DNA of 64,000 nucleotides from an uncultured Rhabdothermincola sp. (lineage in GTDB: Bacteria > Actinomycetota > Acidimicrobiia > Acidimicrobiales > Acidimicrobilacustridaceae), in assembly GCA_964525005.1 (NCBI GenBank), contig CAZGEF010000002.1, positions 183 to 64,182 on the forward strand. The letters run 5' to 3'. The notes beneath the pieces are model-generated. The model ran no database searches and was not told the origin of the DNA. It saw only the letters and a list, made by a program, of their open reading frames with translations. Positions 6,918-38,781 of this stretch are shown piece by piece (positions within the stretch are counted from its first letter, which is position 1; every line of letters begins with the position of its first letter). A program made the position numbers and the translations under genes.

Positions 6918-7592
6918 ATGTCCACGACGGCCACCGCCTCCACCCTGGGACTGCGCGAGCGCAAGAAGCTCCGGACACGCCAGGAGCTGCGCGCCGTCGC
7001 GCTCCGGCTCTTCGTCGAACATGGCTTCGACGCCGTGACGATCGACGAGATCGCGTCGGACGCCGACGTCTCCAAGTCCACCTTCTACCGCTACTTCGAG
7101 TCCAAGGAAGACGTCCTGCTCGGCGACAAGTCCGAGGCGCTCGGACTCCTGCGGGACGCGCTCGCCCGACGACCCGCCGACGAGCTGCCGGTCGAGGCGG
7201 CGCGGCAGGCCTACCTGGAGGTGGCTCCCCTCCTCGAGTACGACCGGGACCAGAAGCTCGCCGTGGCCCGGATCTCGCGCTCTACGCCATCGCTCGCCGC
7301 CCGCAACCTCGAGCACCAGGCGGCCTTCGAGCAGCTGCTGCGCGACGACTTCTCCCGGAGGGTCGCCGACCGATCATCCACGTTGCACACCTGGGTGCTC
7401 GCCGCCCAGGTGATCGCCGCGATGCACGCGGCGGTCGACTACTGGCTCGACCAGGGCGGCGAACAGGACCTGCCCGACGTCATGGACGAGGCCCTACGTG
7501 GCCTCGTCGGTGCCACCGCTGCCGCCACCGACCCGTGCACGACGACCTCACCCACGACCTCCCCCACCACCTCGCCCGAGGCAGCCCGATGA
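6918..7592 (+). CDS. TetR family transcriptional regulator
   Basis: The N-terminal HTH is RERKKLRTRQELRAVALRLFVEHGFDAVTIDEIASDADVSKSTFYRYF. The C-terminal tail is TTSPTTSPTTSP. The stop overlaps the MFS start (ATGA 7589-7592). The upstream part of track ORF 6357.. is not coding. Confidence 0.9.
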   Translation: MSTTATASTLGLRERKKLRTRQELRAVALRLFVEHGFDAVTIDEIASDADVSKSTFYRYFESKEDVLLGDKSEALGLLRDALARRPADELPVEAARQAYLEVAPLLEYDRDQKLAVARISRSTPSLAARNLEHQAAFEQLLRDDFSRRVADRSSTLHTWVLAAQVIAAMHAAVDYWLDQGGEQDLPDVMDEALRGLVGATAAATDPCTTTSPTTSPTTSPEAAR

Positions 7593-27398: not shown

Positions 27399-27402
27399 CC
27401 CG

Positions 27403-27474
27403 GTGATCGTCGGACTCGTCGTCCTGATCCTCGTGACCCTGGGCGTCGTGATCAGCCTGATCTCGAGCGTCTGA
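27403..27474 (+). CDS. Candidate 23-aa hydrophobic micro-peptide
   Basis: Reads GTG..TGA as VIVGLVVLILVTLGVVISLISSV. GGAG lies 8 nt upstream, 4 nt after the PHP stop. It is below the track size cut-off and there is no homology evidence. Confidence 0.25.
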   Translation: MIVGLVVLILVTLGVVISLISSV

Positions 27475-27516
27475 CCCCGGAGCCCGGGTCGGCCGCGCCG
27501 CCAGACAGGAAGGCGG

Positions 27517-27538
27517 GCAGGCAGGCAGGCAGGCAGGC
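27517..27538. repeat. (GCAG)5.5 tetranucleotide microsatellite
   Basis: gcaggcaggcaggcaggcaggc lies in the 103-bp spacer upstream of the gene starting at 27578. Confidence 0.9.
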
Positions 27539-27577
27539 CTCACCCTCGAGGACCCCTGCGGGTGGTAGACGAAGACG

Positions 27578-28696
27578 GTGCCCGACCGACTGTCGAACCG
27601 CGAGCTCAACCGCGCCACGCTCGCTCGGCAGGGGCTGCTCGAACGGGGCGACCAGCGGGTCGAAGCGGTCGTCCACCACCTCGTCGGCATGCAGGCGCAG
27701 GAGCCTCTCGATCCCTACACCGCGCTGTGGTCGCGCCTCGACGGGTTCGTGCCCACCGACCTCGGCGACCTGCTCACCGACCGGACGCTGGTGCGGATCG
27801 TGACCCTCCGGGGCACGATCCACCTGCACACCGCCGAGGACGCCGCGTGGATCCGGCCGCTGGCGCAACCGGTCCTCGACGACGAGATGCGTCGCCACCG
27901 CGAGCTCAAGCACCACCTCGTCGGCGTCGACCTCGCCCCGGTCGTGGCATTCGCCGAGCCGCTTCTCGCCGCCCGACCCCTCTCGGGTCGCCAGCTCCGC
28001 GCCGCGCTCGCCCAGCAGTTCCCCGACCTCGATCCCGCCGCACTGGCGCTGGGCTGCCGCAACCGGATCCCGCTCGTGCAGATCCCGCCGCGCGGGGTGT
28101 GGGGCCAGCGGCTCCAGGTCACGCTGACGCCCCTGGAAGCGTGGACCGGCGTCGAGGTGGGTGGCGAGCCCGATCCCGGTGACGTGCTGCGGCGCTACCT
28201 CGCGGCGTTCGGGCCCGCGTCGCCCACCGACATCGTCACGTGGTCCCGACTCCCCGCGCGGCGTGCCGTCTTCGACGACCTCCGCGGCGACCTGCGGGTG
28301 TTCGTGAACGAGGCCGGCAAGGAGGTCTTCGACCTGCCCGACGCGCCCCGGCCCGACCCTGACACCCCCGCACCGGTGCGGTACCTGCCCGAGTACGACA
28401 ACCTGCTGCTGTCCCATGCCGACCGCACCCGGTTCATCCCCGCCGACCAGCCCGGGTTCGTGCAGACGAACCGCCCGTTCAAGGGCACCGTGCTCGCCGA
28501 CGGCGAGGTGGCAGCCACGTGGTCGGTCGCCCTCGGCGCCGCGCCCGACGGCGGACCGGCCCTGGTCGTGGGCGCGCGCCGGGACCTCACCAAGCGGACG
28601 CTCGCCGCGATCGAGGCCGAGGGACGCCGCTACCTCCGCTTCCGCCAGGACGGCGCCCGCACCGGCGAGGTGCAGCTCCTCAGCGACCCGACCTGA
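27578..28696 (+). CDS. Winged-helix DNA glycosylase-like protein, HTH_42 / YcaQ-AlkZ family
   Basis: Starts MPDRLSNRELNRATLARQGLLER...VVHHLVGMQAQEPLDPY...LVRIVTLRGTIHL. This is the typical family N-terminus, with a Q-A-Q at the position of the catalytic QxQ/QxD motif. Confidence 0.75.
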   Translation: MPDRLSNRELNRATLARQGLLERGDQRVEAVVHHLVGMQAQEPLDPYTALWSRLDGFVPTDLGDLLTDRTLVRIVTLRGTIHLHTAEDAAWIRPLAQPVLDDEMRRHRELKHHLVGVDLAPVVAFAEPLLAARPLSGRQLRAALAQQFPDLDPAALALGCRNRIPLVQIPPRGVWGQRLQVTLTPLEAWTGVEVGGEPDPGDVLRRYLAAFGPASPTDIVTWSRLPARRAVFDDLRGDLRVFVNEAGKEVFDLPDAPRPDPDTPAPVRYLPEYDNLLLSHADRTRFIPADQPGFVQTNRPFKGTVLADGEVAATWSVALGAAPDGGPALVVGARRDLTKRTLAAIEAEGRRYLRFRQDGARTGEVQLLSDPT

Positions 28697-28877
28697 CCGA
28701 CCGCCGAGCGGACCTGACAGAGGCACCGGTTGAGAGGAGACGCCCGGTCCCGAGGTGCCGAGGTGCCGAGCAACCGGCACCGGTGCGGCCTCCGGGGGGC
28801 CCATCCATCTGAAGGAACGAGCGAAGCTCCACCAACTCGGAGTGCGCATTTCCTGTCCTCTGTGACTTCATTGGACG

Positions 28878-29366
28878 ATGACGGACGGCAGTGATGGCTT
28901 CGAGACGTGGTACGTGGCCGTGCATCCACGTCTCGGCGCGGCGTTGACGCTTGCGTTCGGCGACACCGATCTGGCCCAGGAGTCGGCTGATGAGGCGGTA
29001 GCTCGCGCCTATGAGGCTTGGCCCTCGGTCTCGGCGATGGCGTCGCCGACCGGTTGGCTTTTCGCCGTGGCCTTCAACGTGGCGAGGCGGCGGCTGCGGC
29101 GGCGATCTCTGGAACGCCAGCTCGTCCTGCGCAATGGCGCCGAGAGCGAGCATCTTTCCGACGTGGAGCTGTGGCTGGTGGTCGCGGGGCTTCCCGATCG
29201 GCAACGGCAAGCGGTCGTGCTTCGACATGTGGGCCACCTTCGAGAGCGGGAGATCGCCGAGGTGATGGGAATCTCCCGTGGAGGCCTCTCCTCGACGCTC
29301 CGCGCCGCCTACCGATCTCTTCGCATCGAGCTCTCCGAGTCGATCCCATCCCAGGAGGGACCATGA
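28878..29366 (+). CDS. ECF sigma factor (compositionally atypical)
   Basis: Region 2 reads DLAQESADEAVARAYEAW...WLFAVAFNVARRRLRR. Region 4 reads LPDRQRQAVVLRHVGHLREREIAEVMGISRGGLSSTLRAAYRSL. Third codon positions show noticeably more A/T than in neighbouring genes. Confidence 0.85.
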   Translation: MTDGSDGFETWYVAVHPRLGAALTLAFGDTDLAQESADEAVARAYEAWPSVSAMASPTGWLFAVAFNVARRRLRRRSLERQLVLRNGAESEHLSDVELWLVVAGLPDRQRQAVVLRHVGHLREREIAEVMGISRGGLSSTLRAAYRSLRIELSESIPSQEGP

Positions 29367-30193
29367 GCTTCGACCTCGATGACCTTGCGGAGAAGGCCAT
29401 CCGCGAGACGCCGACTCGAGTGCCCGCGATGAGCGAGGTCCTCGCGATCGCTCGACGGCGCGCCCGTCGCCGCGCTGCGGGTCGCGCCGCGACTGCTGTG
29501 GCGGCGCTGGCCGTGGTCGCCGGTGGGCTCTGGGCGTTCCTTCCCGGTGTCAGACCAGATGACCGAGCGAAGCCAGTCCAGGTCATCACCGACGACACCG
29601 ACCAACCCAGCGACGCAACGTCGGCTACCACCCCACCTGAAGCAGGCGTGGCCCGCGGCGTTCTCCCCAACGGCGATCCCTACCGAGTCGAGTCCGCGTC
29701 GCTCGACGACGTGGTAGCCGGCATCTCTGCAGCGATCGTCCTCGACGATGGTGGGTCAGGAGCCCGAGCGATCGGGATCGCGAACTTCCAGAGGGTCGAC
29801 GCTGGCGCGCAGCGTTTCGCCGACGACGAAGCGGGCGTGGTCGGCGTGATCTCAGGATCCTGGATGCTGCACCTGTCGATCTACGACGACGTGCGCGCCG
29901 CGCTGGGCGACGGCGCGGCCACCCTCGTGGCGTCTTGGATCGATCCATCCGATCCGGCCCATGCATCAGGACTGCCGTCCTTCGAGCTATCGACGCCACT
30001 CCGCTGGGCCACCGATGACGAAGTTCCGCTCCAGATGCAGGTGCTGTACCCGGAGTTCGTCGTTCGCCGAGGCTGCGGCACGACAGCTCAGGTCTGCAGC
30101 GACGACGGATCGCTGCAGGTGATCGCGACCAAGGACGTCTTCTACCCGGCCCCCTCATGGCCCGGCGGCACGCTGAAGATCACCGACGACTAG
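29363..30193 (+). CDS. Single-pass membrane protein, putative anti-sigma partner
   Basis: The ATG overlaps the sigma stop (ATGA 29363-29366). One TM helix (AATAVAALAVVAGGLWAFL) is followed by a ~200-aa external domain. No family recognised. Confidence 0.6.
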   Translation: MSFDLDDLAEKAIRETPTRVPAMSEVLAIARRRARRRAAGRAATAVAALAVVAGGLWAFLPGVRPDDRAKPVQVITDDTDQPSDATSATTPPEAGVARGVLPNGDPYRVESASLDDVVAGISAAIVLDDGGSGARAIGIANFQRVDAGAQRFADDEAGVVGVISGSWMLHLSIYDDVRAALGDGAATLVASWIDPSDPAHASGLPSFELSTPLRWATDDEVPLQMQVLYPEFVVRRGCGTTAQVCSDDGSLQVIATKDVFYPAPSWPGGTLKITDD

Positions 30194-30629
30194 CGCGAGG
30201 ACACGTGGCTCCTGGGTGCCGGTAGGCACCCCACGTCGCGAGGGTGTCGCCTTCCACCGTTGCCGGCACATGGTGTGACGAGATGGCCACGGGTGAGCAG
30301 CGTCGCCGCCGACGGACGGATCCCGACGTCCGCCCACCCAGAGATCGTCGTTCGATCCACGGCGACGATCGCGAAGAGTCCCCTCGATCGGACGTCTCCT
30401 GTGACGCCGATGTCCGAGCCAGTGGCCGGTCTCCGGACGTCGAGCAGAATTCCCTGCTGCGGGGTTGTTCCTGTCAGACCATGACGATACGCTCGAACAC
30501 ACGTTCGAGAGGCCGCTGGCCGTTCCCCACTCGAGCGGACCATCTTCACCGTCACCTCCCGGCCCGGCAACGGCTCCCTGGAGGGTTGACGATGACGGTG
30601 TCCGTGACCGATTCGAGGGGAGGCCAGGC

Positions 30630-32141
30630 ATGCAGCAGACCGTGGGCGGCGAAGCCGACCAGCTCCACTCCCTGTTCCTCGCGGTGTCCCAGTTCGCGCA
30701 GTCCTTCGACCCGAAGGTCCTGTCGGGATCCGACGCCAAGCGGATCCTGCACGACGCGGCGCGAGCCAAGTCGATCCTGGCCGTCGTCGAGTCCCTGGCG
30801 CTGGTGCGCATCGAGGAGACCGAGGCGCACAAGGCCGCCGGGTACCGCTCGGCCGCCGACTACGGCGCGGCGAAGACCGGCGCCAAGCGCGGCGAGGCGC
30901 AACGGGCGATGAGGACCGCCAAGCGGGCCCGGCGGTTGCCCCAGACCGACGAGGCGATGCGCCGCGGCGAGCTGTCGCCCCGACAGGCCGACGCCATCGC
31001 CGATGCCGCGACGGTCAACCCCGAAGCAGAAGACGACCTGCTCGCGGCGGCGAAGACCGACGACGTGGGGACCCTGGAACGCAAGGCGAAGCGGGCCAAG
31101 TCCTCCGCCGACCACGACGCCCAGGCGCGCACCCGCCGGATCCACGCCCGCCGGTCCTTGCGTCACTGGACCGACGAAGAGGGCGCCTTCCACACCCACC
31201 TGCGCACCACCGTCGAAGCCGGTGCCCGACTCCTCGAAGCCCTCAAGCCCTACGAACGCGCCGCCTTCGAGGCCGCCCGCAGAGAAGGCCGCCGCGAGGC
31301 TCCCGATGCCTACGCCGCGGATGCCCTCGACCTGCTCATCGGTGACCACACGAGCCCGAGCGACGACGCGGCGCCCCGCCCGAACCCGACGACCACCCCG
31401 GACGTGCCCTCGGCCCACGTCGGCCCCGACGAACGCCCCGGCCCAACCGTCGACGACCGCGCTCCCGACGGGCCGCGAGCCGACCGCGCCGACGGATCCG
31501 AAGACCCGGACCGGCCCAACGACCCGGACCGGCCCGACGACCCAGACCTCAGGGGTGCACGGACAACCCGCGGGCAGGACCCACCCGCCCGGTCGGCCGT
31601 CGCGCCGAACCGGGTGAGGAAACCGCAACCGAGAGCCACGAGCGCTCCCCGGGCGACGGTGTTCCTCAACATCGACCTCGCGCCGCTGCTGCGCGGCCAC
31701 CTGATCCCGGGCGAGACCTGCGAGATCCCCGGCGTCGGCCCCATCGACCTCGCCTCCGCACAGACCCTGCTCGGCGACGCCACCATCGAGCTCATCCTCA
31801 AGAAGGGCACCGACATCTGCTCGGTCGTGCACTACGGCCGCACGGTGACCGCCGCTCAACGACGTGCCCTCGAAGCCCGCGACCCCGTCTGCATCGTCCC
31901 CGGCTGCGGGCAGACGAAGGGGCTCCAGATCGACCATCGCCGAGGCTGGGCCATCACCCACACCACCAGCCTCGACGATCTCGCCCGTCTGTGCGCCTAC
32001 CACCACATGCTCAAGACGCTGCACGGCTGCACCTACACCGGCGGCCCCGGCACCTGGCGATGGCACCCGCCCGGCACCGACCCACCCGGCCAGGCGCCCG
32101 ACGGCACCGACCAGCCCGACCTGTTCAGCAAGCCGCCATGA
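30630..32141 (+). CDS. DUF222 domain / HNH endonuclease protein (REP13E12 family)
   Basis: The ATG at 30630 follows GAGGGGAGG. The N-terminal helical DUF222-type region reads SGSDAKRILHDAARAKSILAVVESLALVRIEE. A Pro/Asp-rich linker follows. The C-terminal HNH reads CIVPGCGQTKGLQIDHRRGW...LCAYHHMLKT. Confidence 0.88.
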   Translation: MQQTVGGEADQLHSLFLAVSQFAQSFDPKVLSGSDAKRILHDAARAKSILAVVESLALVRIEETEAHKAAGYRSAADYGAAKTGAKRGEAQRAMRTAKRARRLPQTDEAMRRGELSPRQADAIADAATVNPEAEDDLLAAAKTDDVGTLERKAKRAKSSADHDAQARTRRIHARRSLRHWTDEEGAFHTHLRTTVEAGARLLEALKPYERAAFEAARREGRREAPDAYAADALDLLIGDHTSPSDDAAPRPNPTTTPDVPSAHVGPDERPGPTVDDRAPDGPRADRADGSEDPDRPNDPDRPDDPDLRGARTTRGQDPPARSAVAPNRVRKPQPRATSAPRATVFLNIDLAPLLRGHLIPGETCEIPGVGPIDLASAQTLLGDATIELILKKGTDICSVVHYGRTVTAAQRRALEARDPVCIVPGCGQTKGLQIDHRRGWAITHTTSLDDLARLCAYHHMLKTLHGCTYTGGPGTWRWHPPGTDPPGQAPDGTDQPDLFSKPP

Positions 32142-32164
32142 GCAACGAAGCCCCGGCCGCGAAG

Positions 32165-32271
32165 CAGCGAAGGAGCGAGGCCCCGAACGCGGATCCGCCG
32201 GGCAGGACCCGCCGCCCCGACCTCACCCGGTCGGCGCGAGCCGCAGCTACGGCGCGCCGAGGAGCCCGGCG
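32165..32271. repeat. Terminal repeat R, copy A (~107 nt)
   Basis: Differs from 34760-34869 by 3 substitutions (all G/A) and one 3-nt indel. Contains the gcggatccgc palindrome and a ccgacc/ggtcgg hairpin. On the minus strand it ends with ..AGLLGAP-stop. Confidence 0.85.
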
Positions 32272-32342
32272 CCCTTTCCCGACCTCGCCGCTCCCTCCGC
32301 CTCCGCCCGGTCGGCACCCCCCACCGGCGAGGTCCAGGTCCT

Positions 32343-33533
32343 CTACCGCGCCCGCAGGCGGCTGACCTCCGAACGGGAAAGGGCGACGTCGTCGTTCTCG
32401 GCGCCCAGCGCGCGGGCGATCGCTTCGGCAAGGTCGTGGGCCGCGGCGAGGACGTGCTTGGCGGTCGTGCGGTCGTGGTGCCCGTGGATGCTCTTGATGT
32501 ACTTGCGCTGTCGGTGGCGCGAGCCTGCCAGTGCCGCGACCTCGTCCTCGGTCAACGTGCCATTGGCGACCTCGGGGGCGAGCAGGTCGTGCATCCAGGT
32601 CCGCTCGGTCGACGACGCGAGCCGAGCGACGTAGAGGACGATGCCGACCTCCACGACGAGGAACAGCGGCATGAGCAGACCGGAGCCGGCGCTGCTGCCG
32701 AAGAGCGTTCCGCCGATCGCGCCCATCGAGTCCCACGCACCGTGGCAGAGCATGGCGACGGCCATCAGGGCAAGCCCCCGGCCGACCCGCCGGCGTTCTG
32801 CGCCCCACCCGAGGAGCCAGAAGAGGCCAGCGCAGAAGATCGCCGAGAACAGCGCATGGGACGCGATGCCCACGATGCTGCGCAGGCCGATGACCTGCAA
32901 CGCGGCGGCGGTCTCGTTCGTCCCGAAGTCGACCTGAGCGCCCTGGTAGACGTACAGGACGTTCTCCCAGATCTGGAACCCGAGGCCGATGAAGGCACCG
33001 ACCACGAAGGCGTCGTAGGCGCTGCGGATCAGGCGAGGTGCCAGACCGACCAGGACCACGAGACCGATCGCCTTGGACGCCTCTTCGGTGAACGGTGCGG
33101 TGAGGCCGGCGCTCCAGTCGGCCGCCCACGCCTGGCCGAACACCTTGGCGTACAGGGACAGGACCGCGTCGTTGACGGTGAGCGCCAGCGTCGCGGTGGC
33201 GGCGAAGAAGCCCCAGCCGAATGCGGTCGCGAGCAGCTTGGGCGACTCGGGGGTGTACCGGTTGTTGGCACCGAGGAACACGAGCCAGATCGCGCCGTAG
33301 ACGGCGAACGCGATGCCTCCGCCGGCGAGCGCGCCCCCGAAGTTGCCGATGTCGTGCGCGTAGAAGCGCACGGTGTGGCCGACACCCACCGCCATCGCCC
33401 ACACGTAGACCCAGAACATGGCGTTGCGGGGCTGGAAGAGCCGGAACCGCTCACCCCAGCCCGAGTCGTCGATGGCGGCGAGCTGGCGGGCGCGCCGGTC
33501 GTCAGGTGCGTCGGTCCGGTCGGTGGCGGTCAC
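32343..33533 (-). CDS. PrsW-family intramembrane metalloprotease
   Basis: Polytopic, with FTEEASKAIG (EExxK) and HALFSAIF (HxxxD/N-type) motifs and a long cytoplasmic C-terminal tail. The GTG start overlaps the upstream stop (GTGA). Confidence 0.85.
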   Translation of the reverse strand: MTATDRTDAPDDRRARQLAAIDDSGWGERFRLFQPRNAMFWVYVWAMAVGVGHTVRFYAHDIGNFGGALAGGGIAFAVYGAIWLVFLGANNRYTPESPKLLATAFGWGFFAATATLALTVNDAVLSLYAKVFGQAWAADWSAGLTAPFTEEASKAIGLVVLVGLAPRLIRSAYDAFVVGAFIGLGFQIWENVLYVYQGAQVDFGTNETAAALQVIGLRSIVGIASHALFSAIFCAGLFWLLGWGAERRRVGRGLALMAVAMLCHGAWDSMGAIGGTLFGSSAGSGLLMPLFLVVEVGIVLYVARLASSTERTWMHDLLAPEVANGTLTEDEVAALAGSRHRQRKYIKSIHGHHDRTTAKHVLAAAHDLAEAIARALGAENDDVALSRSEVSRLRAR

Positions 33534-34204
33534 GAGGCGGGCTCCTCGACGGTGAGGCTGTCGATCAGGGCACCGATCGCGGCCGACTGGTTGGCGTACG
33601 CCGTGTCGGTGGCGTCGATCGTGATCGTGACGCCGGTCGGCGTCGTGCCGTCGGTTCCCGCGTCGAGGGTGAAGGCCAGGACGCGACCCTCGCCGCTCGC
33701 CGAGGTGTACGCCTCGGACACGCCGGTGAGCCCCGACGCGGTCGTGACGGTCGCCCGAGGGCCGGTCACCTTGAACGCCCGGTTCCCGTCCGCGTCCGAA
33801 GCGGTCCGCAGCCGGTTGACCTGGTCGAGCAACTCGTCCGGGGTCCCGTCGAAGTTGCCCCGCGTGACCGTGAGCTGCACGCCGCCGCTGCCGATCGAGG
33901 CCGCGCCGTCGCCGGTTATCCCCGAAGCCGGTTCGTCACCCACCCGGATGCCGCTGGTCAGCTCCCAACCCGTCGGCGGCACGACGGTCACCCCCCGGCC
34001 GAGATCGAGCACGTCTCCGGCGCGGGTCTCGTCATCCCAGCCGACCGCGTCGTCGATCGCCGGGATCGCCACCATGAAGACCAGCATCAGCCCCAGCACC
34101 ACCGCCGCGAGCGGGATGGTGCGCCGGTCCAGGCCGAGCCAGCGGTGCTCGACCGGGACATGCCCCGGGGGCGGGGGACCCGTCAAGGGTTCAGATGCCT
34201 CCAT
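33530..34204 (-). CDS. Single-pass membrane protein coupled to PrsW
   Basis: Starts MEASEPLTGPPPPGHV..., with a TM helix IPLAAVVLGLMLVFMVAIPAI and a ~170-aa external Thr/Gly/Asp-rich domain. No family recognised. The first 30 codons of the track ORF are probably not translated. Confidence 0.55.
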   Translation of the reverse strand: MEASEPLTGPPPPGHVPVEHRWLGLDRRTIPLAAVVLGLMLVFMVAIPAIDDAVGWDDETRAGDVLDLGRGVTVVPPTGWELTSGIRVGDEPASGITGDGAASIGSGGVQLTVTRGNFDGTPDELLDQVNRLRTASDADGNRAFKVTGPRATVTTASGLTGVSEAYTSASGEGRVLAFTLDAGTDGTTPTGVTITIDATDTAYANQSAAIGALIDSLTVEEPAS

Positions 34205-34384
34205 CGTCCTCTCCGATCCGGCGTGCCGAGGCGCACCTGCGCACGTGGCGGGCGACGTAGCAGCTCGATCGAAGCCCTCAGCTCGACCTCCCATCGGACG
34301 CGAGCGACCCGGCGCGACGTGGCGGCGGGGTCCGCGCCTGTCGACGCCGTCGCCTTCTTCACCCGGCCGGGCGTTCGGGTCCGA

Positions 34385-34869
34385 GTCCGGCCGTCCAGAA
34401 GAATTTCTCGCTGCGGGTCGTTCCTGTCAGGCCATGGCGACCAGCCCCACCGACGCGCCCCACCCGAGCCGACCAACCCCACCTGTTCAGCCAGCCGCCA
34501 TGAGCAACGAAGCCCCGGCCGCGGATCGGCGGGGGGGGACCCGCCGCCCCGACCCGGTCGCGTGCCGCAGCCACGACGCGCCGAGCGCGGCAGACCTCAG
34601 CAAGCTGCTCCAGCAACGAACCGGCAAGAGTGGCGAACAGACCGCGAAGACCCGGCCCACCACCGACCCCCGTCCACGACGAGAGCTCGTCGAGCAAACG
34701 GCGCACCCAACCGGCGACCTCGGGGCGGGGGGTGACCGGTGGACCGCAAGTGAGGCGCGCAGCGACGAAGGAGCGAAGCCCCGAACGCGGATCCGCCGGG
34801 CAGGACCCGCCGCCCCGACCTCACCCGGTCAGCGCGAGCCGCAGCTACGACGCGCCGAGGAGCCCGGCG
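34385..34869 (+). mobile_element. Internally deleted (non-autonomous-looking) copy of the DUF222-HNH element
   Basis: L' is 34385-34440 (roughly 85% identical to L, one indel). It is followed directly by the last ~60 nt of the HNH ORF and J' at 34483-34523 (40/41 identical). Next come a 5'-truncated diverged R at 34524-34590, ~170 nt of unique sequence, and a full R at 34760-34869. About 1.6 kb of coding sequence is missing. Confidence 0.6.
34760..34869. repeat. Terminal repeat R, copy B; overlaps the last 8 codons and stop of the PfkB kinase gene
   Basis: See copy A. The minus strand reads ..AGLLGAS-stop, which is the real C-terminus of the gene at 34845-35861. Confidence 0.85.
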
Positions 34870-35861
34870 TCGGTGGCCAGCTGCTCGAGGGAGACCTGGG
34901 GGCGGGCGCCGATGTGGGAGATCACCTCGGCCGCGGCGAGCGAACCGAGCTCGGCGGCGCGCCGCAGGCCCAGGCCGTGGGTGTAGCCGTAGAGGAAGCC
35001 GCCCGCGTAGAGGTCGCCGGCGCCGGTGGTGTCCACCACCTCGTCGACCGGCGAAGCCGGCACCTCGATGCGCTCATCACCCGACACGATGACCGAGCCG
35101 TGCTCGCTCCGGGTCAGGCAGGTGACCTCGACGACCTCGGCGATGCGGTCGGCGGCCACCCGCCAGTCGTCGACCTCGTAGAGCGAGAGGATCTCGGCCT
35201 CGTTGGCGAAGAGCACGTCGACGTGGTCGCGCACGAGGTCGACGAACTCGGCACGGTGGCGGTCGACGCAGAACGCGTCGGACAGCGTGAACGACACCTT
35301 GCCCCCGCTGGCGTGAGCGACCTCCATCGCCTTGACGATGGCCGCCTTGGTGAGCGGAAGGTCCCACAGGTAGCCCTCGCAGTAGACCACCTGCGCAGCG
35401 GCGACGAGCACCTCGTCCACGTCATCGGGCTCGATGAGCCCGGCCACGCCGAGGAAGGTGTTCATGGTGCGCTGGGCGTCGGGCGTGACGAGCACCAGGC
35501 AACGACCCGTGCCCAGCGGATCGTCGAGGGTGCGGACCGGATCGAAGTGCACACCAGCGGCGCGCACGTCGTGGGTGAACACCTGGCCCAGCTCGTCGGT
35601 GGCCACCTGACCGACGAAGCCGACCGAGCCGCCGAGCGACGCCATGCCGGCCACCGTGTTGGCGGCGCTGCCGCCCGAGACCTCCGTGGCCGGCGGCATG
35701 TCGTCGTAGATGGCGTGCGCCGCCCCGGAATCGATGAGTGCCATCGACCCCTTGACCATGCCGTGCCGGTCGATGAACCCGTCGTCGGTCCGAGCGATCA
35801 CGTCGACGATCGCGTTGCCGACGGCCACGACGTCGTAGGTCTTCTCGCTGTTCTGCGCCAT
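34845..35861 (-). CDS. PfkB-family carbohydrate/nucleoside kinase, adenosine-kinase-like
   Basis: Starts MAQNSEKTYDVVAVGNAIVDVI, with EVSGGSAANT and C-terminal DTTGAGDLYAGGFLYG (PfkB signature 2). Confidence 0.85.
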   Translation of the reverse strand: MAQNSEKTYDVVAVGNAIVDVIARTDDGFIDRHGMVKGSMALIDSGAAHAIYDDMPPATEVSGGSAANTVAGMASLGGSVGFVGQVATDELGQVFTHDVRAAGVHFDPVRTLDDPLGTGRCLVLVTPDAQRTMNTFLGVAGLIEPDDVDEVLVAAAQVVYCEGYLWDLPLTKAAIVKAMEVAHASGGKVSFTLSDAFCVDRHRAEFVDLVRDHVDVLFANEAEILSLYEVDDWRVAADRIAEVVEVTCLTRSEHGSVIVSGDERIEVPASPVDEVVDTTGAGDLYAGGFLYGYTHGLGLRRAAELGSLAAAEVISHIGARPQVSLEQLATDAGLLGAS

Positions 35862-36066: not shown

Positions 36067-38781
36067 ATGACCGATGCCTCGAGTCTTCCCGCCGCTGACG
36101 CTGCCGATCCGTACCGCCTTCCCCGGACCGTGCTGCCGAGCCGGTACGACATCACGATCGAGCCCGATCTCGACGACGCCTCGTTCGTGGGCACGTCGGT
36201 CACGACGGTCGACGTGCTCGAGACCACGAACACCTTCGTGCTCAACGCCATCGAGCTCGACATCACCACGGCATGGCTCGAGGACGCCGACGGCAACCGC
36301 TACGAACGCGAGCTGGTCACCCTCGACGAGGACACCGAGCGGCTCACCATCGAGTTCGGCGTCGAGGCCACGCCTGGGCCATGGACGATCCACACCGCGT
36401 TCACCGGCATCCTCAACGACAAGCTGCACGGCTTCTACCGCAGCACGTTCACCGACACCGACGGGGTCGATCAGACCATCGCCACCACGCAGTTCGAGGC
36501 CACCGACGCCCGTCGCGCCTTCCCCTGCTGGGACGAGCCCGAGCTCAAAGCGGTGTTCGGCGTGACCCTGATCGTCCCGGCGGAGCTCACCGCGGTGTCC
36601 AACGCCGCCGAGATCGACCGCACCCTCCGCGACGACGGCAAGGCCGTCGTTCGGTTCGCCGACACCATGAAGATGTCCACCTACCTGGTGGCCTTCGTCG
36701 TCGGCCCGCTCGACGTCACCGACCCCGTCGACGTCGGCGGCATCCCCCTGCGCATCGTGCACCCGCGGGGCAAGGACCACCTCACGGCGTGGGCGCTCGA
36801 GGTCGGCGCGTTCACCCTGGACTTCTTCGCCGACTACTACGGCATCCCCTACCCGGGCGACAAGCTCGACCTCGTCGCCGTGCCCGACTTCGCGTTCGGT
36901 GCCATGGAGAACCTGGGCTGCGTCACCTTCCGCGAGGTGGCCCTGCTCGTCGACCCCGACAGCGCGACCCAAGACGAGCTCCAGCGGGTCACCGACGTCA
37001 TCACCCACGAGCTGGCCCACATGTGGTTCGGCGACCTCGTCACCATGAAGTGGTGGAACGGCATCTGGCTGAACGAGGCGTTCGCCACGTTCATGGAGAT
37101 GCTGGCCACCGACGCCTTCCGCCCCGAGTGGGACCGCTGGTCGACCTTCGGCCTGTCACGCACCGCGGCGTTCGACGTCGACTCGCTGGGCACCACCCGT
37201 CCCATCGAGTTCCCCGTGGTGTCGCCCGACGAGGCCGAGGGGATGTTCGACATCCTCACCTACGAGAAGGGCGCCGCGGTCGTCCGGATGCTCGAGCAGT
37301 ACCTGGGTGCCGAGGTGTTCCGTGACGGCATCCGCAGCTACCTGGCCGAGCACGCCTACGGGAACACCGAGACCACCGACCTGTGGGATGCGATCGAGGC
37401 CGCCAGCGGCGAGCCGGTCCGCCGGATCATGGACTCGTGGATCTTCCAGGGCGGCTATCCGCTCATCAGCGTCGAGGTCGTCGACGACGGCGACACGCTG
37501 CGGCTCAGCCAGGAGCGCTTCGCCTACGCCGACGACATCGACGGCGATGCCGACCCCACCACCGTCGAGGGCGAGCGATGGTCGGTGCCCGTCCTGCTCA
37601 CCGTCGCCTACCCCGGCGCCACCGCCGACGGTCAGCCGCTCGACCGCGGCGCCGATGCCGACGCTGACGGCGGCGACGCCGTCAGTGTCGAGCGCGTGCT
37701 CGTCGAGGACGAGACCCACGACATCGACCTGTTCGAGGCGATCGAGTGGACCTTCGTCAACACCCAGAGCACCGGCTTCTATCGGGTCCGCTACGCGTCC
37801 GGCCTCCTCGAGGCGATCACCAACCGGGCCCAGGAGGTCCTCTCGCCCATCGAGCGCTACAGCCTCGTCGACGACGCCTGGTCCGCCGTGCTCGCCGACG
37901 CCATGAGCGCCGAGGCCTTCCTCGAGCTCATCGAGACCTTCGGGGCCGAGACCGACCTGTCGGTGTGGCAGCGGATCATCGGTGCCATCGGGTCGCTCGA
38001 CCGCATCCTCGACGACGGCGAGTATCCCCGCGACGCCGCGACCGACGACAGCGACGCCCGCGTCGCGTTCCAGAGCCGGATACGGGCGCTGCTGCGCCAG
38101 CCCTTCGACCGGCTCGGCGTCACCCCTTCCGACGACGACACCGAGCGCGATCGCAGCCTGCGGGGTGCGCTGTTCCAGGCGCTCGGCACCACGGCGGTCG
38201 ACGAGGAGGTGCGGATCATGGCCCGCGACCTGCACGCACGGGCAACCGCTGACGGCGCGCCGACCGACGCCGTCGACCCCGCGCTGTTCGCCGCGTCCAT
38301 CGCGGTCATCGCGGCGAGTGGCGGCGAGGCCGACTTCGAGGCCTTCCTCGCCCGGGCCAAGGCGGCGACCAACCCCCAGGAGGAGCAGCGCTACCAGACC
38401 GCGCTCGCCGACTTCGACGAGGGAGAGCTCGTGGCGCGAGTGCTCCAGCTGTGCCTGACCGACGACATCCGCAGCCAGGACGCGCCGTACCTCATCCGCC
38501 GCGTGCTGTGGAACCGCGAGCATGCCGGCGAGGCCTGGGTCTTCGTCATGGAGAACTGGGACGCGCTCAACGCCCGGTTCCCGTCCAACAGCATCGTGCG
38601 CATGCTCGAAGGCATCCGAGCGCTCTCGATGCCGCAGGTGGCGCCGTCCGTCTTCACGTTCTTCGAGGACCACGACGTCCCCCAGGGCGATCGCCAGCTC
38701 GCCCAGCACCTCGAACGCCTCGAGGTCAACGTGGCGCTGCGCAACCGCGAGACCGCACGGTTCACCCACGCGCTCACATGA
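36067..38781 (+). CDS. pepN: Aminopeptidase N (M1 family)
   Basis: Contains the FGAMENLG exopeptidase motif and HELAHMWFGDLVTMKWWNGIWLNEAF (HExxH-18-E). Starts MTDASSLPAADAADPYRLP. Confidence 0.93.
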   Translation: MTDASSLPAADAADPYRLPRTVLPSRYDITIEPDLDDASFVGTSVTTVDVLETTNTFVLNAIELDITTAWLEDADGNRYERELVTLDEDTERLTIEFGVEATPGPWTIHTAFTGILNDKLHGFYRSTFTDTDGVDQTIATTQFEATDARRAFPCWDEPELKAVFGVTLIVPAELTAVSNAAEIDRTLRDDGKAVVRFADTMKMSTYLVAFVVGPLDVTDPVDVGGIPLRIVHPRGKDHLTAWALEVGAFTLDFFADYYGIPYPGDKLDLVAVPDFAFGAMENLGCVTFREVALLVDPDSATQDELQRVTDVITHELAHMWFGDLVTMKWWNGIWLNEAFATFMEMLATDAFRPEWDRWSTFGLSRTAAFDVDSLGTTRPIEFPVVSPDEAEGMFDILTYEKGAAVVRMLEQYLGAEVFRDGIRSYLAEHAYGNTETTDLWDAIEAASGEPVRRIMDSWIFQGGYPLISVEVVDDGDTLRLSQERFAYADDIDGDADPTTVEGERWSVPVLLTVAYPGATADGQPLDRGADADADGGDAVSVERVLVEDETHDIDLFEAIEWTFVNTQSTGFYRVRYASGLLEAITNRAQEVLSPIERYSLVDDAWSAVLADAMSAEAFLELIETFGAETDLSVWQRIIGAIGSLDRILDDGEYPRDAATDDSDARVAFQSRIRALLRQPFDRLGVTPSDDDTERDRSLRGALFQALGTTAVDEEVRIMARDLHARATADGAPTDAVDPALFAASIAVIAASGGEADFEAFLARAKAATNPQEEQRYQTALADFDEGELVARVLQLCLTDDIRSQDAPYLIRRVLWNREHAGEAWVFVMENWDALNARFPSNSIVRMLEGIRALSMPQVAPSVFTFFEDHDVPQGDRQLAQHLERLEVNVALRNRETARFTHALT

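Follow-up and report, generated by a model that had tools for sequence, protein, structure and literature searches.

We analyzed a locus within a 64-kb stretch of DNA (the window, to which all positions refer) from a Rhabdothermincola-like Acidimicrobiia metagenome-assembled genome (MAG). The locus contains an intact gene for a DUF222-HNH nuclease of the 13E12/REP13E12 family together with the relic of a second copy, and is bordered by an AlkZ-like DNA glycosylase gene on the left and by the convergent PfkB-family kinase gene (pfkB) on the right. The original prediction for this region had described one intact gene and one internally deleted copy, and both were found again by a DUF222 match, the HNH residues and repeat alignments. 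It had further interpreted the pair as a transposon with a non-autonomous derivative. This could not be maintained, since there are no terminal inverted repeats, no target-site duplication and only a single derivative in the 64 kb, and since one of the repeats described below (T2) points to a multi-gene unit.

Repeats and module order

Repeats were searched by BLAST and by ungapped repeat finding over the 64 kb, and all copy counts given here concern the window only. The repeats described before, here L, J, R and R', were all recovered by these searches and are confirmed to be real and far above chance. The two full copies of R, R(A) at 32158-32271 and R(B) at 34756-34869 (both plus strand), matched at 108 of 114 ungapped positions (94.7%, BLAST E 1e-47) with a longest exact run of 53 nt. 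R(A) consists of a displaced 3' flank of pfkB and the last 8 pseudo-codons of this gene (..GAGLLGAP-stop), 71 nt from the stop of a PrsW-family protease gene. R(B) contains the same flank with the genuine last 8 codons and stop of pfkB (..DAGLLGAS-stop). The earlier statement that the kinase terminus had been copied is supported. A sister genome shows homology to the last ~30 nt of R(A), with the pseudo-tail, at its native pfkB end.

A diverged and 5'-shortened form of R, named R', was present at 34524-34585 and shared 78-79% with each full R (E 1e-8 to 1e-18). It runs on to ~34610 through ~15 pfkB pseudo-codons (..LEQLAEV..) with an alignment score of 121 as compared to a shuffle maximum of 73. 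The complete feature (34524-34610, plus strand) represents an older, diverged pfkB 3' flank with its pseudo-codons. The spacer between R' and R(B) (34611-34755), here referred to as uniq, contains in its right part (34702-34733) an inverted counterpart to the core of R(B) (inverted repeat I5/I1).

J (32107-32161, plus strand) comprises the last 11 codons of the nuclease gene, its stop codon and 20 nt beyond. Its core at 32121-32161 matched J' (34483-34523) at 40 of 41 positions with an exact run of 31 nt, and the broader block (32107-32169 versus 34469-34531) was 90% identical (E 5e-19). L at 30431-30488 and L' at 34385-34440 shared 46 of 58 positions (79%, E 1e-8). Additional copies of L, J, R and R' were not found in the window. 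A 21-mer resembling the pfkB tail (CCGCAGCCAGGACGCGCCGTA, 38469-38489), which has three mismatches to the R tail motif, is located within an M1 aminopeptidase gene and is probably due to chance.

A three-way alignment revealed that the 3' half of J (CGAAGCCCCGGCCGCG) is homologous to the start of R (CGAAGCCCCGAACGCG), with the last 16 nt of J corresponding, in variant form, to the 16 nt at which R begins. Consequently, J'-R' is collinear with R(B), and the full copy carries both versions in tandem.

A fourth repeat, absent from the first reading, connects the locus with the AlkZ-like gene (27578-28696, plus strand), which is the left boundary of module 1. This gene matched Pfam PF06224 over its full length (E 7e-74), and codon-position GC content supports its frame. 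T1 (28625-28681, plus strand) covers AlkZ codons -24 to -5, and T2 (32286-32343, plus strand) is a pseudo-copy of the same codons; they match at 49 of 58 positions (84%, E 1e-9), T1 being the source or the counterpart of T2. T2 has the same orientation as T1, begins 14 nt after R(A), abuts the PrsW stop and forms the left end of module 2. The short joint j (32272-32285), which lies within an independent unitig at 100% identity, thus leads from a pfkB pseudo-tail to an AlkZ pseudo-tail. A joint of the pfkB 3' end to the AlkZ 3' end would result from a tandem duplication or from the single-crossover insertion of a circle, but not from a cassette-sized transposition. The position of the AlkZ pseudo-tail directly past R(A) therefore argues for a multi-gene module, reaching from the AlkZ tail to the pfkB tail, as the duplicated unit and not for the HNH element.

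Two modules can be distinguished in this way. Module 1 comprises T1, a sigma factor gene and a putative anti-sigma factor gene, L, the HNH gene, J and, as its right end, R(A) with a pfkB tail of 8 codons. Module 2 comprises T2, the PrsW gene, a conserved hypothetical gene, L', J', R' with a 15-codon tail, uniq and R(B), which continues into pfkB. Both modules show the markers in the order T-L-J-R, with the full copy in module 1 and the relic in module 2. Identities between the modules (L 79%, T 84%, ORF end 70%, R(A)/R' 78%) were comparable to the 75-88% found against the sister MAG, with J (98%) and R(A)/R(B) (95%) as outliers.

The end of R(A) together with j (32254-32281) forms an inverted near-copy of the PrsW 3' coding sequence at 32374-32404 (GCGCCGAG...GCCCTTTCCCG; p about 0.006 by shuffling). 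It looks like templated filler from fold-back or template-switch repair.

Logan unitigs of run SRR16798008 matched the window at 30050-32160 and at 32203-34522 with 100% identity. Both stop exactly at J and within R, as expected of de Bruijn unitigs at repeats. Since they cover the stretch from R(A) over the AlkZ pseudo-tail to PrsW as well as that from the hypothetical gene over L' to J', both junctions exist in the reads.

The DUF222-HNH gene, its promoter and the relic

The intact gene (30630-32141, plus strand) encodes a protein of 503 amino acids (aa), which is on record in exactly this form and has 166 homologues, most of them with PF02720. The DUF222 model (PF02720) matched with E 6.9e-9 and 35.9 bits (cutoff 24.4) at residues 95-267 of the extended open reading frame (ORF) of 558 aa (30465-32141), which corresponds to about residues 40-212 of the 503-aa protein. 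A second, weak piece was found at the C-terminus. The HNH/zinc motif residues C421, C426, D435-H436, C455 and H459 (C-x4-C, D-H, C-x3-H), invariant in an alignment of 15 sequences, are all present, even though the Pfam HNH model, which matches homologues, gave no match at E<=1 to the window protein. In agreement with the family assignment made earlier, we regard 30630-32141 as a 13E12/REP13E12-family nuclease gene that is predicted to be functional.

The AlphaFold2 model had a predicted local distance difference test score (pLDDT) of >90 for the N-terminal helical domain; means of 10-residue blocks in the HNH core were mostly 88-93, with dips of ~60 and ~80. Foldseek gave weak matches only to HNH folds (McrA, TagI and Cas5-HNH, E about 1). 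For the DUF222 helical domain (residues ~10-240) it returned ParB/Noc DNA-binding domains with a probability of 0.91-0.99 and a non-significant E of 0.16-0.7, which hints at DUF222 being a DNA-binding module. In the PDB, no relatives were found by sequence, and by fold only these non-significant ParB/Noc-like and HNH matches. Homologues of the protein in phages or plasmids were not detected at tblastn E<=1e-5.

The last residues of the protein (494-503; 32109-32141) contain a D-Q-P-x-L-F or similar motif, which is found in several members of the family (DQPDLF, DQPGLF, DDPPLF), with QDKLL in a MAG that carries four copies. It resembles the beta sliding-clamp binding motif QLxLF, and the relic would still encode DQPHLF.

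Upstream of the gene, L and the adjacent operator form a predicted composite DNA-damage promoter (30431-30508, plus strand), the motifs of which were read from the sequence and compared with a published consensus (PMC5656591). RecA-NDp is a mycobacterial RecA-independent DNA-damage promoter that is bound by the activator PafBC (PMC5656591, PMC6789036). Its mycobacterial consensus, tTGTCRgtg-8 nt-TAnnnT (PMC5656591), is matched by cTGTCAgac (30471-30479), an 8-nt spacer and the -10 hexamer TACGCT (30488-30493). A LexA box (TCGAACACACGTTCGA, 30493-30508; TCGAAC-N4-GTTCGA) overlaps the -10 hexamer. It is a perfect actinobacterial box and the sole perfect match in 64 kb, where ~0.2 matches with <=1 mismatch are expected by chance. 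A second SOS-like box at 7015-7030 was dismissed as a chance match inside a TetR-type coding region. In view of the composite RecA-NDp/LexA promoter the gene is presumably silent until DNA damage.

The same promoter architecture was found upstream of the two closest relatives, here named P0002 and P0003, in all contigs carrying them. A pattern scan (GTTCYTGTC-N17-LexA box) retrieved 37 metagenome loci, with DUF222 in 9 of the 10 downstream ORFs tested. Likewise, the repeat unit of the four-copy MAG MFD10064.bin.2.28 starts at TTGTCAcac-8 nt-TAGCTT. L, which had been taken for a terminus of the element, is the half of a promoter common to P0002, P0003 and the 37 metagenome loci, that is the upstream half of a predicted family-wide DNA-damage regulatory module.

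Most of the metagenomic DUF222 genes with this promoter have an ATG within the LexA box (TCGAACnnATGTTCGA), which would lead to leaderless mRNAs and to products beginning with MFD or MFE. The window (30501-30503) and P0002 carry ACG instead, in frame with a downstream ATG (30630 in the window) that has its own GGAGG, whereas P0003 retains the ATG. The pattern suggests a putative switch from a leaderless to a leadered start.

The relic spans ~200 bp. Within L' (34385-34440, plus strand) the TGTCAG and the 8-nt spacer of the promoter are kept, whereas -10 hexamer, LexA box and leader are gone, as is ~97% of the ORF. Repeat alignments place the 3' end of the relic ORF (..DQPHLFSQPP-stop) together with J' at 34446-34523 (plus strand). 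The deletion begins exactly at the -10 hexamer, and its breakpoints lie in similar short sequences, CCATG(A/G)CGA and GGCGATGGCA. One deletion would have taken out everything from the -10 hexamer through ~100 nt before the stop codon. To judge from its sequence, the relic is a dead second copy that is roughly 20% diverged except in J. The shared 'ends' of the two copies are what the deletion spared: L as the upstream promoter half, J as the final codons with 20 nt, and R as the spacer to the convergent pfkB. An inverted R-like copy to the left of L' (34301-34338) was considered as a terminal inverted repeat; with p = 0.03 and a fold of 34290-34600 at z = +0.4 it was judged insufficient.

Flanks of the cassette and neighbouring genes in related genomes

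J and R had been described as parts of the element, a view contradicted by the closest cassettes. Over matched segments the nucleotide identity to the window cassette was 77-78% for P0002 and 74-75% for P0003, but the homology ends inside the ORF (at 32073 and 32082, respectively) and the sequences downstream are unrelated. The four copies of MFD10064.bin.2.28, 94-99% identical, all share a unit that begins at the RecA-NDp -35-like element and ends with the stop codon, and two of the four share ~60 nt more. The R core pattern had 0 matches in JGI metagenome contigs and none in the 38 loci searched, by which R as a generic repeat was rejected. The last ~30 nt of R(B) align with the pfkB end of the sister MAG, from gacgc..gag(g/c)agcccggcg; after ..AGLL a TGA is found there versus GGC here. 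The distal ~80 nt of R, tried as a homologue of the pfkB-PHP spacer of the sister MAG, did not rise above shuffles. We read R as pfkB's own 3' flank with its last 8 codons, and J and R would not be intrinsic to the cassette. In the simplest reading J-R is the spacer between the HNH cassette and the convergent pfkB, and this spacer and the pfkB tail were displaced twice.

Tail-to-tail placement beside a convergent gene appears to be common for these cassettes. The P0002 cassette is separated from its convergent neighbour by a 10-nt gap, and ~60% of ~18 loci showed this arrangement by crude gene calling.

Directly after the pfkB stop a long imperfect hairpin is formed by an arm in uniq and R(B) (34690-34850, minus strand; -96 kcal/mol, z = -3.4, a stability reached by none of 200 shuffles), R(B) being the stop-proximal arm of the 160-nt structure. 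The hairpin is possibly a U-less terminator and possibly a fragile site of repeated rearrangements. Folded alone, R(A), R' and R(B) had z-scores of -0.8 to +0.6 only, with no Rfam match at E<=1 and no tRNA or tmRNA, and R as a structured RNA or terminator was discarded. For uniq no significant match was found among the sequences compared. As a third AlkZ tail or as a remnant of HNH 3' coding sequence it was not above shuffles (p 0.06-0.3), and the tblastn matches were of low complexity only.

Module 1 carries an extracytoplasmic function (ECF) sigma factor gene (28878-29366, plus strand; Pfam Sigma70_r2/r4, NCBIfam SigE family E 6e-27), the stop of which overlaps as ATGA with a tentative anti-sigma factor gene (29363-30193, plus strand; weak anti-sigma and DUF6215 matches). 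On the minus strand of module 2 the PrsW-family intramembrane protease gene (32343-33533; Pfam PF13367, E 1e-34) is probably co-transcribed with the conserved hypothetical gene of 224 aa (33530-34204), which was called on the Logan unitig. The adenosine kinase-like pfkB (34845-35861, minus strand; Pfam PF00294, E 2e-44) has an orthologue of 88% in the sister MAG; its exact-sequence look-up returned no record, while the exact protein (P0121) is on record. In Bacillus, PrsW is the site-1 protease of the anti-sigma factor RsiW. The ECF sigma/putative anti-sigma pair and PrsW lie in one block with the HNH cassette between them, which may reflect a functional module split by the cassette or a coincidence.

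Orthologues of PrsW in other contexts shared 81-84% at the aa and 82-83% at the nt level. The pair of the hypothetical gene and PrsW is kept in five relatives with five different neighbourhoods, with 82-83% nt identity in loci L032 and L033, PrsW at 74-75% aa identity in L034/L035 and L038, and different neighbours on both sides. An adjacency of AlkZ and PrsW was not found in these five relatives.

Over >25 kb, to either side of the locus, the window is collinear at 75-88% identity with the sister MAG GCA_964485515.1 (uncultured Rhabdothermincola sp.). Between its PHP-domain gene and pfkB there are 244 nt (L026 11013-11257), compared to 7.4 kb in the window (27400-34849). The 7.4 kb missing from the sister MAG contain the AlkZ-like, ECF sigma, anti-sigma, HNH, PrsW and hypothetical genes, and within its 244-nt spacer five 20-nt repeats are arranged in tandem (tgaccggacctgc(c/g)gacgcc). 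A compositional island signal was not detected in the region, nor were an integrase or a tRNA found there. The region is evolutionarily fluid.

Related Acidimicrobiia MAGs carry 2-4 cassette copies of 92-99.9% identity, compared to one full copy and one relic in the window. In MAG MFD09286.bin.2.1, three DUF222-HNH loci (L018 9369-9918, L019/L020 9401-9949) share ~550 nt upstream at 98%, while the ORF of L018 is only ~65% identical to L019/L020. This mosaicism suggests that upstream modules were exchanged between paralogues. A second variable junction near a DUF222-HNH cassette was seen in two contigs with an identical P0002 cassette (L002 1-8771 and L003 1-4878), which are wholly different upstream of a Macro-domain gene. 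One of these assemblies has a CRISPR-Cas locus there (cas3-cas4/cas1-cas2, GSU0053-type) and the other small hypothetical genes.

Origin of the locus and relation to known systems

Starting from what was observed directly, namely the repeats with their limits and sequence of arrangement, the motifs of promoter and operator and the 7.4 kb absent in the sister genome, the locus may well be the footprint of a segmental event that reached from inside the AlkZ-like gene to inside pfkB and left two modules; we give this reading an even chance. The event could have been a tandem duplication followed by differential loss or, equally possible, the integration, by a single (Campbell-type) crossover, of a circle carrying a homeologous form of this interval. 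R' with its 15 pfkB pseudo-codons would go back to an earlier event of this type, and J/J' (98%) and R(A)/R(B) (95%) would, compared to ~80% elsewhere, represent later short gene-conversion tracts. The order of events, like any causal role of the SOS-induced nuclease in the breaks, is what we infer from these data. Several points weigh against such a segmental event. Between T and L the two modules have nothing in common (sigma/anti-sigma versus PrsW/hypothetical gene), so that a tandem duplication needs extra deletions and a homeologous insert needs a donor with AlkZ next to PrsW, an arrangement present in 0 of the 5 relatives. In addition, uniq is left unexplained by the module model, the very uneven identity (70-98%) needs ad hoc gene conversion, and T1/T2 is one match of 58 nt. 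Finally, extra L, J or R copies elsewhere in the MAG, beyond the 64 kb counted, would favour a mobile element.

One alternative is a homing-like duplicative spread, which we consider unlikely. Here, the cassette would originally have been positioned tail-to-tail with pfkB, the HNH nuclease would be induced by the SOS response and cut at a new site, and repair would copy the cassette, the spacer and the adjoining 8 (earlier 15) pfkB codons in the manner of a 3' transduction, with R(A) and R' as records of two copying events. It agrees with the discrete promoter-to-stop units, multi-copy and 94-99% identical, of other Acidimicrobiia MAGs, with the position of an HNH cassette 3' end directly before each displaced pfkB tail and with the predicted damage-inducibility of the gene. 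The 3' homology that extends ~60 nt past the stop in two of the four copies of MFD10064.bin.2.28 indicates that a variable carry-over of flanks occurs, and REP13E12 loci are gene-conversion hotspots in M. tuberculosis (PMC13061034). However, such copying does not account for T2 exactly at the end of R(A), or for R(B), which has no preceding J, being the copy closest to R(A). Neither an empty target site nor a nuclease recognition site was found; in the sister MAG all of the 7.4 kb are missing and not the cassette alone. Outside J, moreover, the relic and the full copy differ by ~20%. That the displaced pfkB tails (15 codons in R', 8 in R(A)) are successive footprints of the spread of 13E12/DUF222-HNH cassettes, by copying of the cassette with variable downstream host DNA after SOS-induced breaks, seems rather improbable to us. 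If true, it would mean an end-less, homing-like mobility, of which the locus would preserve the junctions and the preferred tail-to-tail target beside a convergent gene.

The model of the original prediction, an autonomous transposable element with the termini L and R, a deletion derivative resembling miniature inverted-repeat transposable elements (MITEs) and a site-specific insertion at the pfkB stop, is very unlikely. The short copy does retain sequence from both sides of the ORF, and the two J-to-R registers, offset by ~30 nt, are readable as two independent insertions near the same target. Yet L is a regulatory motif common to the family, neither J nor R occurs in the closest cassettes, the R core is missing from the JGI contigs, and there is no terminal inverted repeat between the L and J/R regions. 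Target-site duplications were absent here, where nothing but the internal repeats is common to the surroundings of the full copy and of the relic, as well as in the four-copy MAG. The 64 kb contain a single short derivative, from which the -10 hexamer and operator were deleted as by ordinary decay; moreover, this model gives no reason for a native pfkB-like target at the R(A) site downstream of PrsW and leaves T2 unexplained. Against an integrative element at the 3' end of a gene, PrsW and the conserved hypothetical protein are the only products encoded in 32272-34755, which holds no integrase or recombinase gene. As to an assembly artefact, two co-existing strain variants of the interval from AlkZ to pfkB could have been joined in tandem via their shared repeats. 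The contig derives from a MAG, the copies of R and of J share exact runs of no more than 53 and 31 nt, respectively, the unitigs end exactly at J and within R, and an order of [T-X-R][T-Y-R] is the expected look of two alleles in series. Nevertheless, the joint from R(A) over 14 nt to T2 and PrsW is impossible in either allele and is still present at 100% in an independent unitig, the copies are distinct (R(A)/R(B) differ at 6 positions, J/J' at 1), and de Bruijn assemblers do not invent junctions. Because the novel junction sits in an independent unitig, we regard a chimera as highly improbable.

To our knowledge, how REP13E12/DUF222-HNH repeats spread has been an open question since 1999. 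Through inversions and gene conversion they influence the structure of the M. tuberculosis genome. The window cassette and the REP13E12 units have in common an N-terminal DUF222 domain with a C-terminal HNH/zinc motif, an organization as promoter-plus-ORF units, which are multi-copy in REP13E12 (about 1.4-1.6 kb each) and in related Acidimicrobiia MAGs, a promoter with LexA box and RecA-NDp motifs and a tie to local recombination or gene conversion. The 13E12 genes of M. tuberculosis are LexA-bound and have RecA-NDp (PMC3381160), their loci are among the most often converted ones (PMC13061034), and the repeats mediate large inversions and are hotspots of homologous recombination (PMC13157036). 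Unlike these, the window belongs to a Rhabdothermincola-like Acidimicrobiia host, has one intact copy and a relic in 64 kb and encodes a distantly related protein (35.9 bits to Pfam DUF222).

Other systems are similar in part. Free-standing phage homing endonuclease genes (T-even seg/mob) are self-contained promoter-plus-nuclease cassettes between host genes as well, and if they spread by the repair of breaks, markers in the flanks would be co-converted, to which the displaced pfkB tails might point; in contrast, the window gene is predicted to be under host control of the SOS/PafBC type and has no phage or plasmid homologues at the threshold given above. As in MITEs and internally deleted copies of insertion sequences, the short copy has preserved sequence from either side of the coding region, but it occurs once in the window, has neither terminal inverted repeats nor a target-site duplication, and its 'ends' consist of host flank and a piece of promoter. 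Junctions of tandem duplications or Campbell-type insertions that displace gene 3' ends, as at attachment (att) sites of integrative elements, share with the locus direct repeats that hold the 3' end of the target gene, the proximal repeat giving an intact end and the pseudo-tail being displaced distally, and a novel joint at which one unit ends and the following one starts. They differ in that the locus has no integrase or recombinase besides the HNH protein, that a 114-nt repeat is longer than typical att cores and that pseudo-tails originate from both boundary genes (AlkZ-like and pfkB).

The locus is a descriptive single case by which the mechanism is not settled. It nevertheless extends the 13E12 family together with its predicted dual DNA-damage control (RecA-NDp and LexA box) to the Acidimicrobiia. 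Since the dual-control promoter is conserved, the 5' 'end' of such repeats would be regulatory and not a transposition signal. Furthermore, the locus documents DUF222-HNH genes at rearrangement-prone spots where the tails of neighbouring genes get duplicated.

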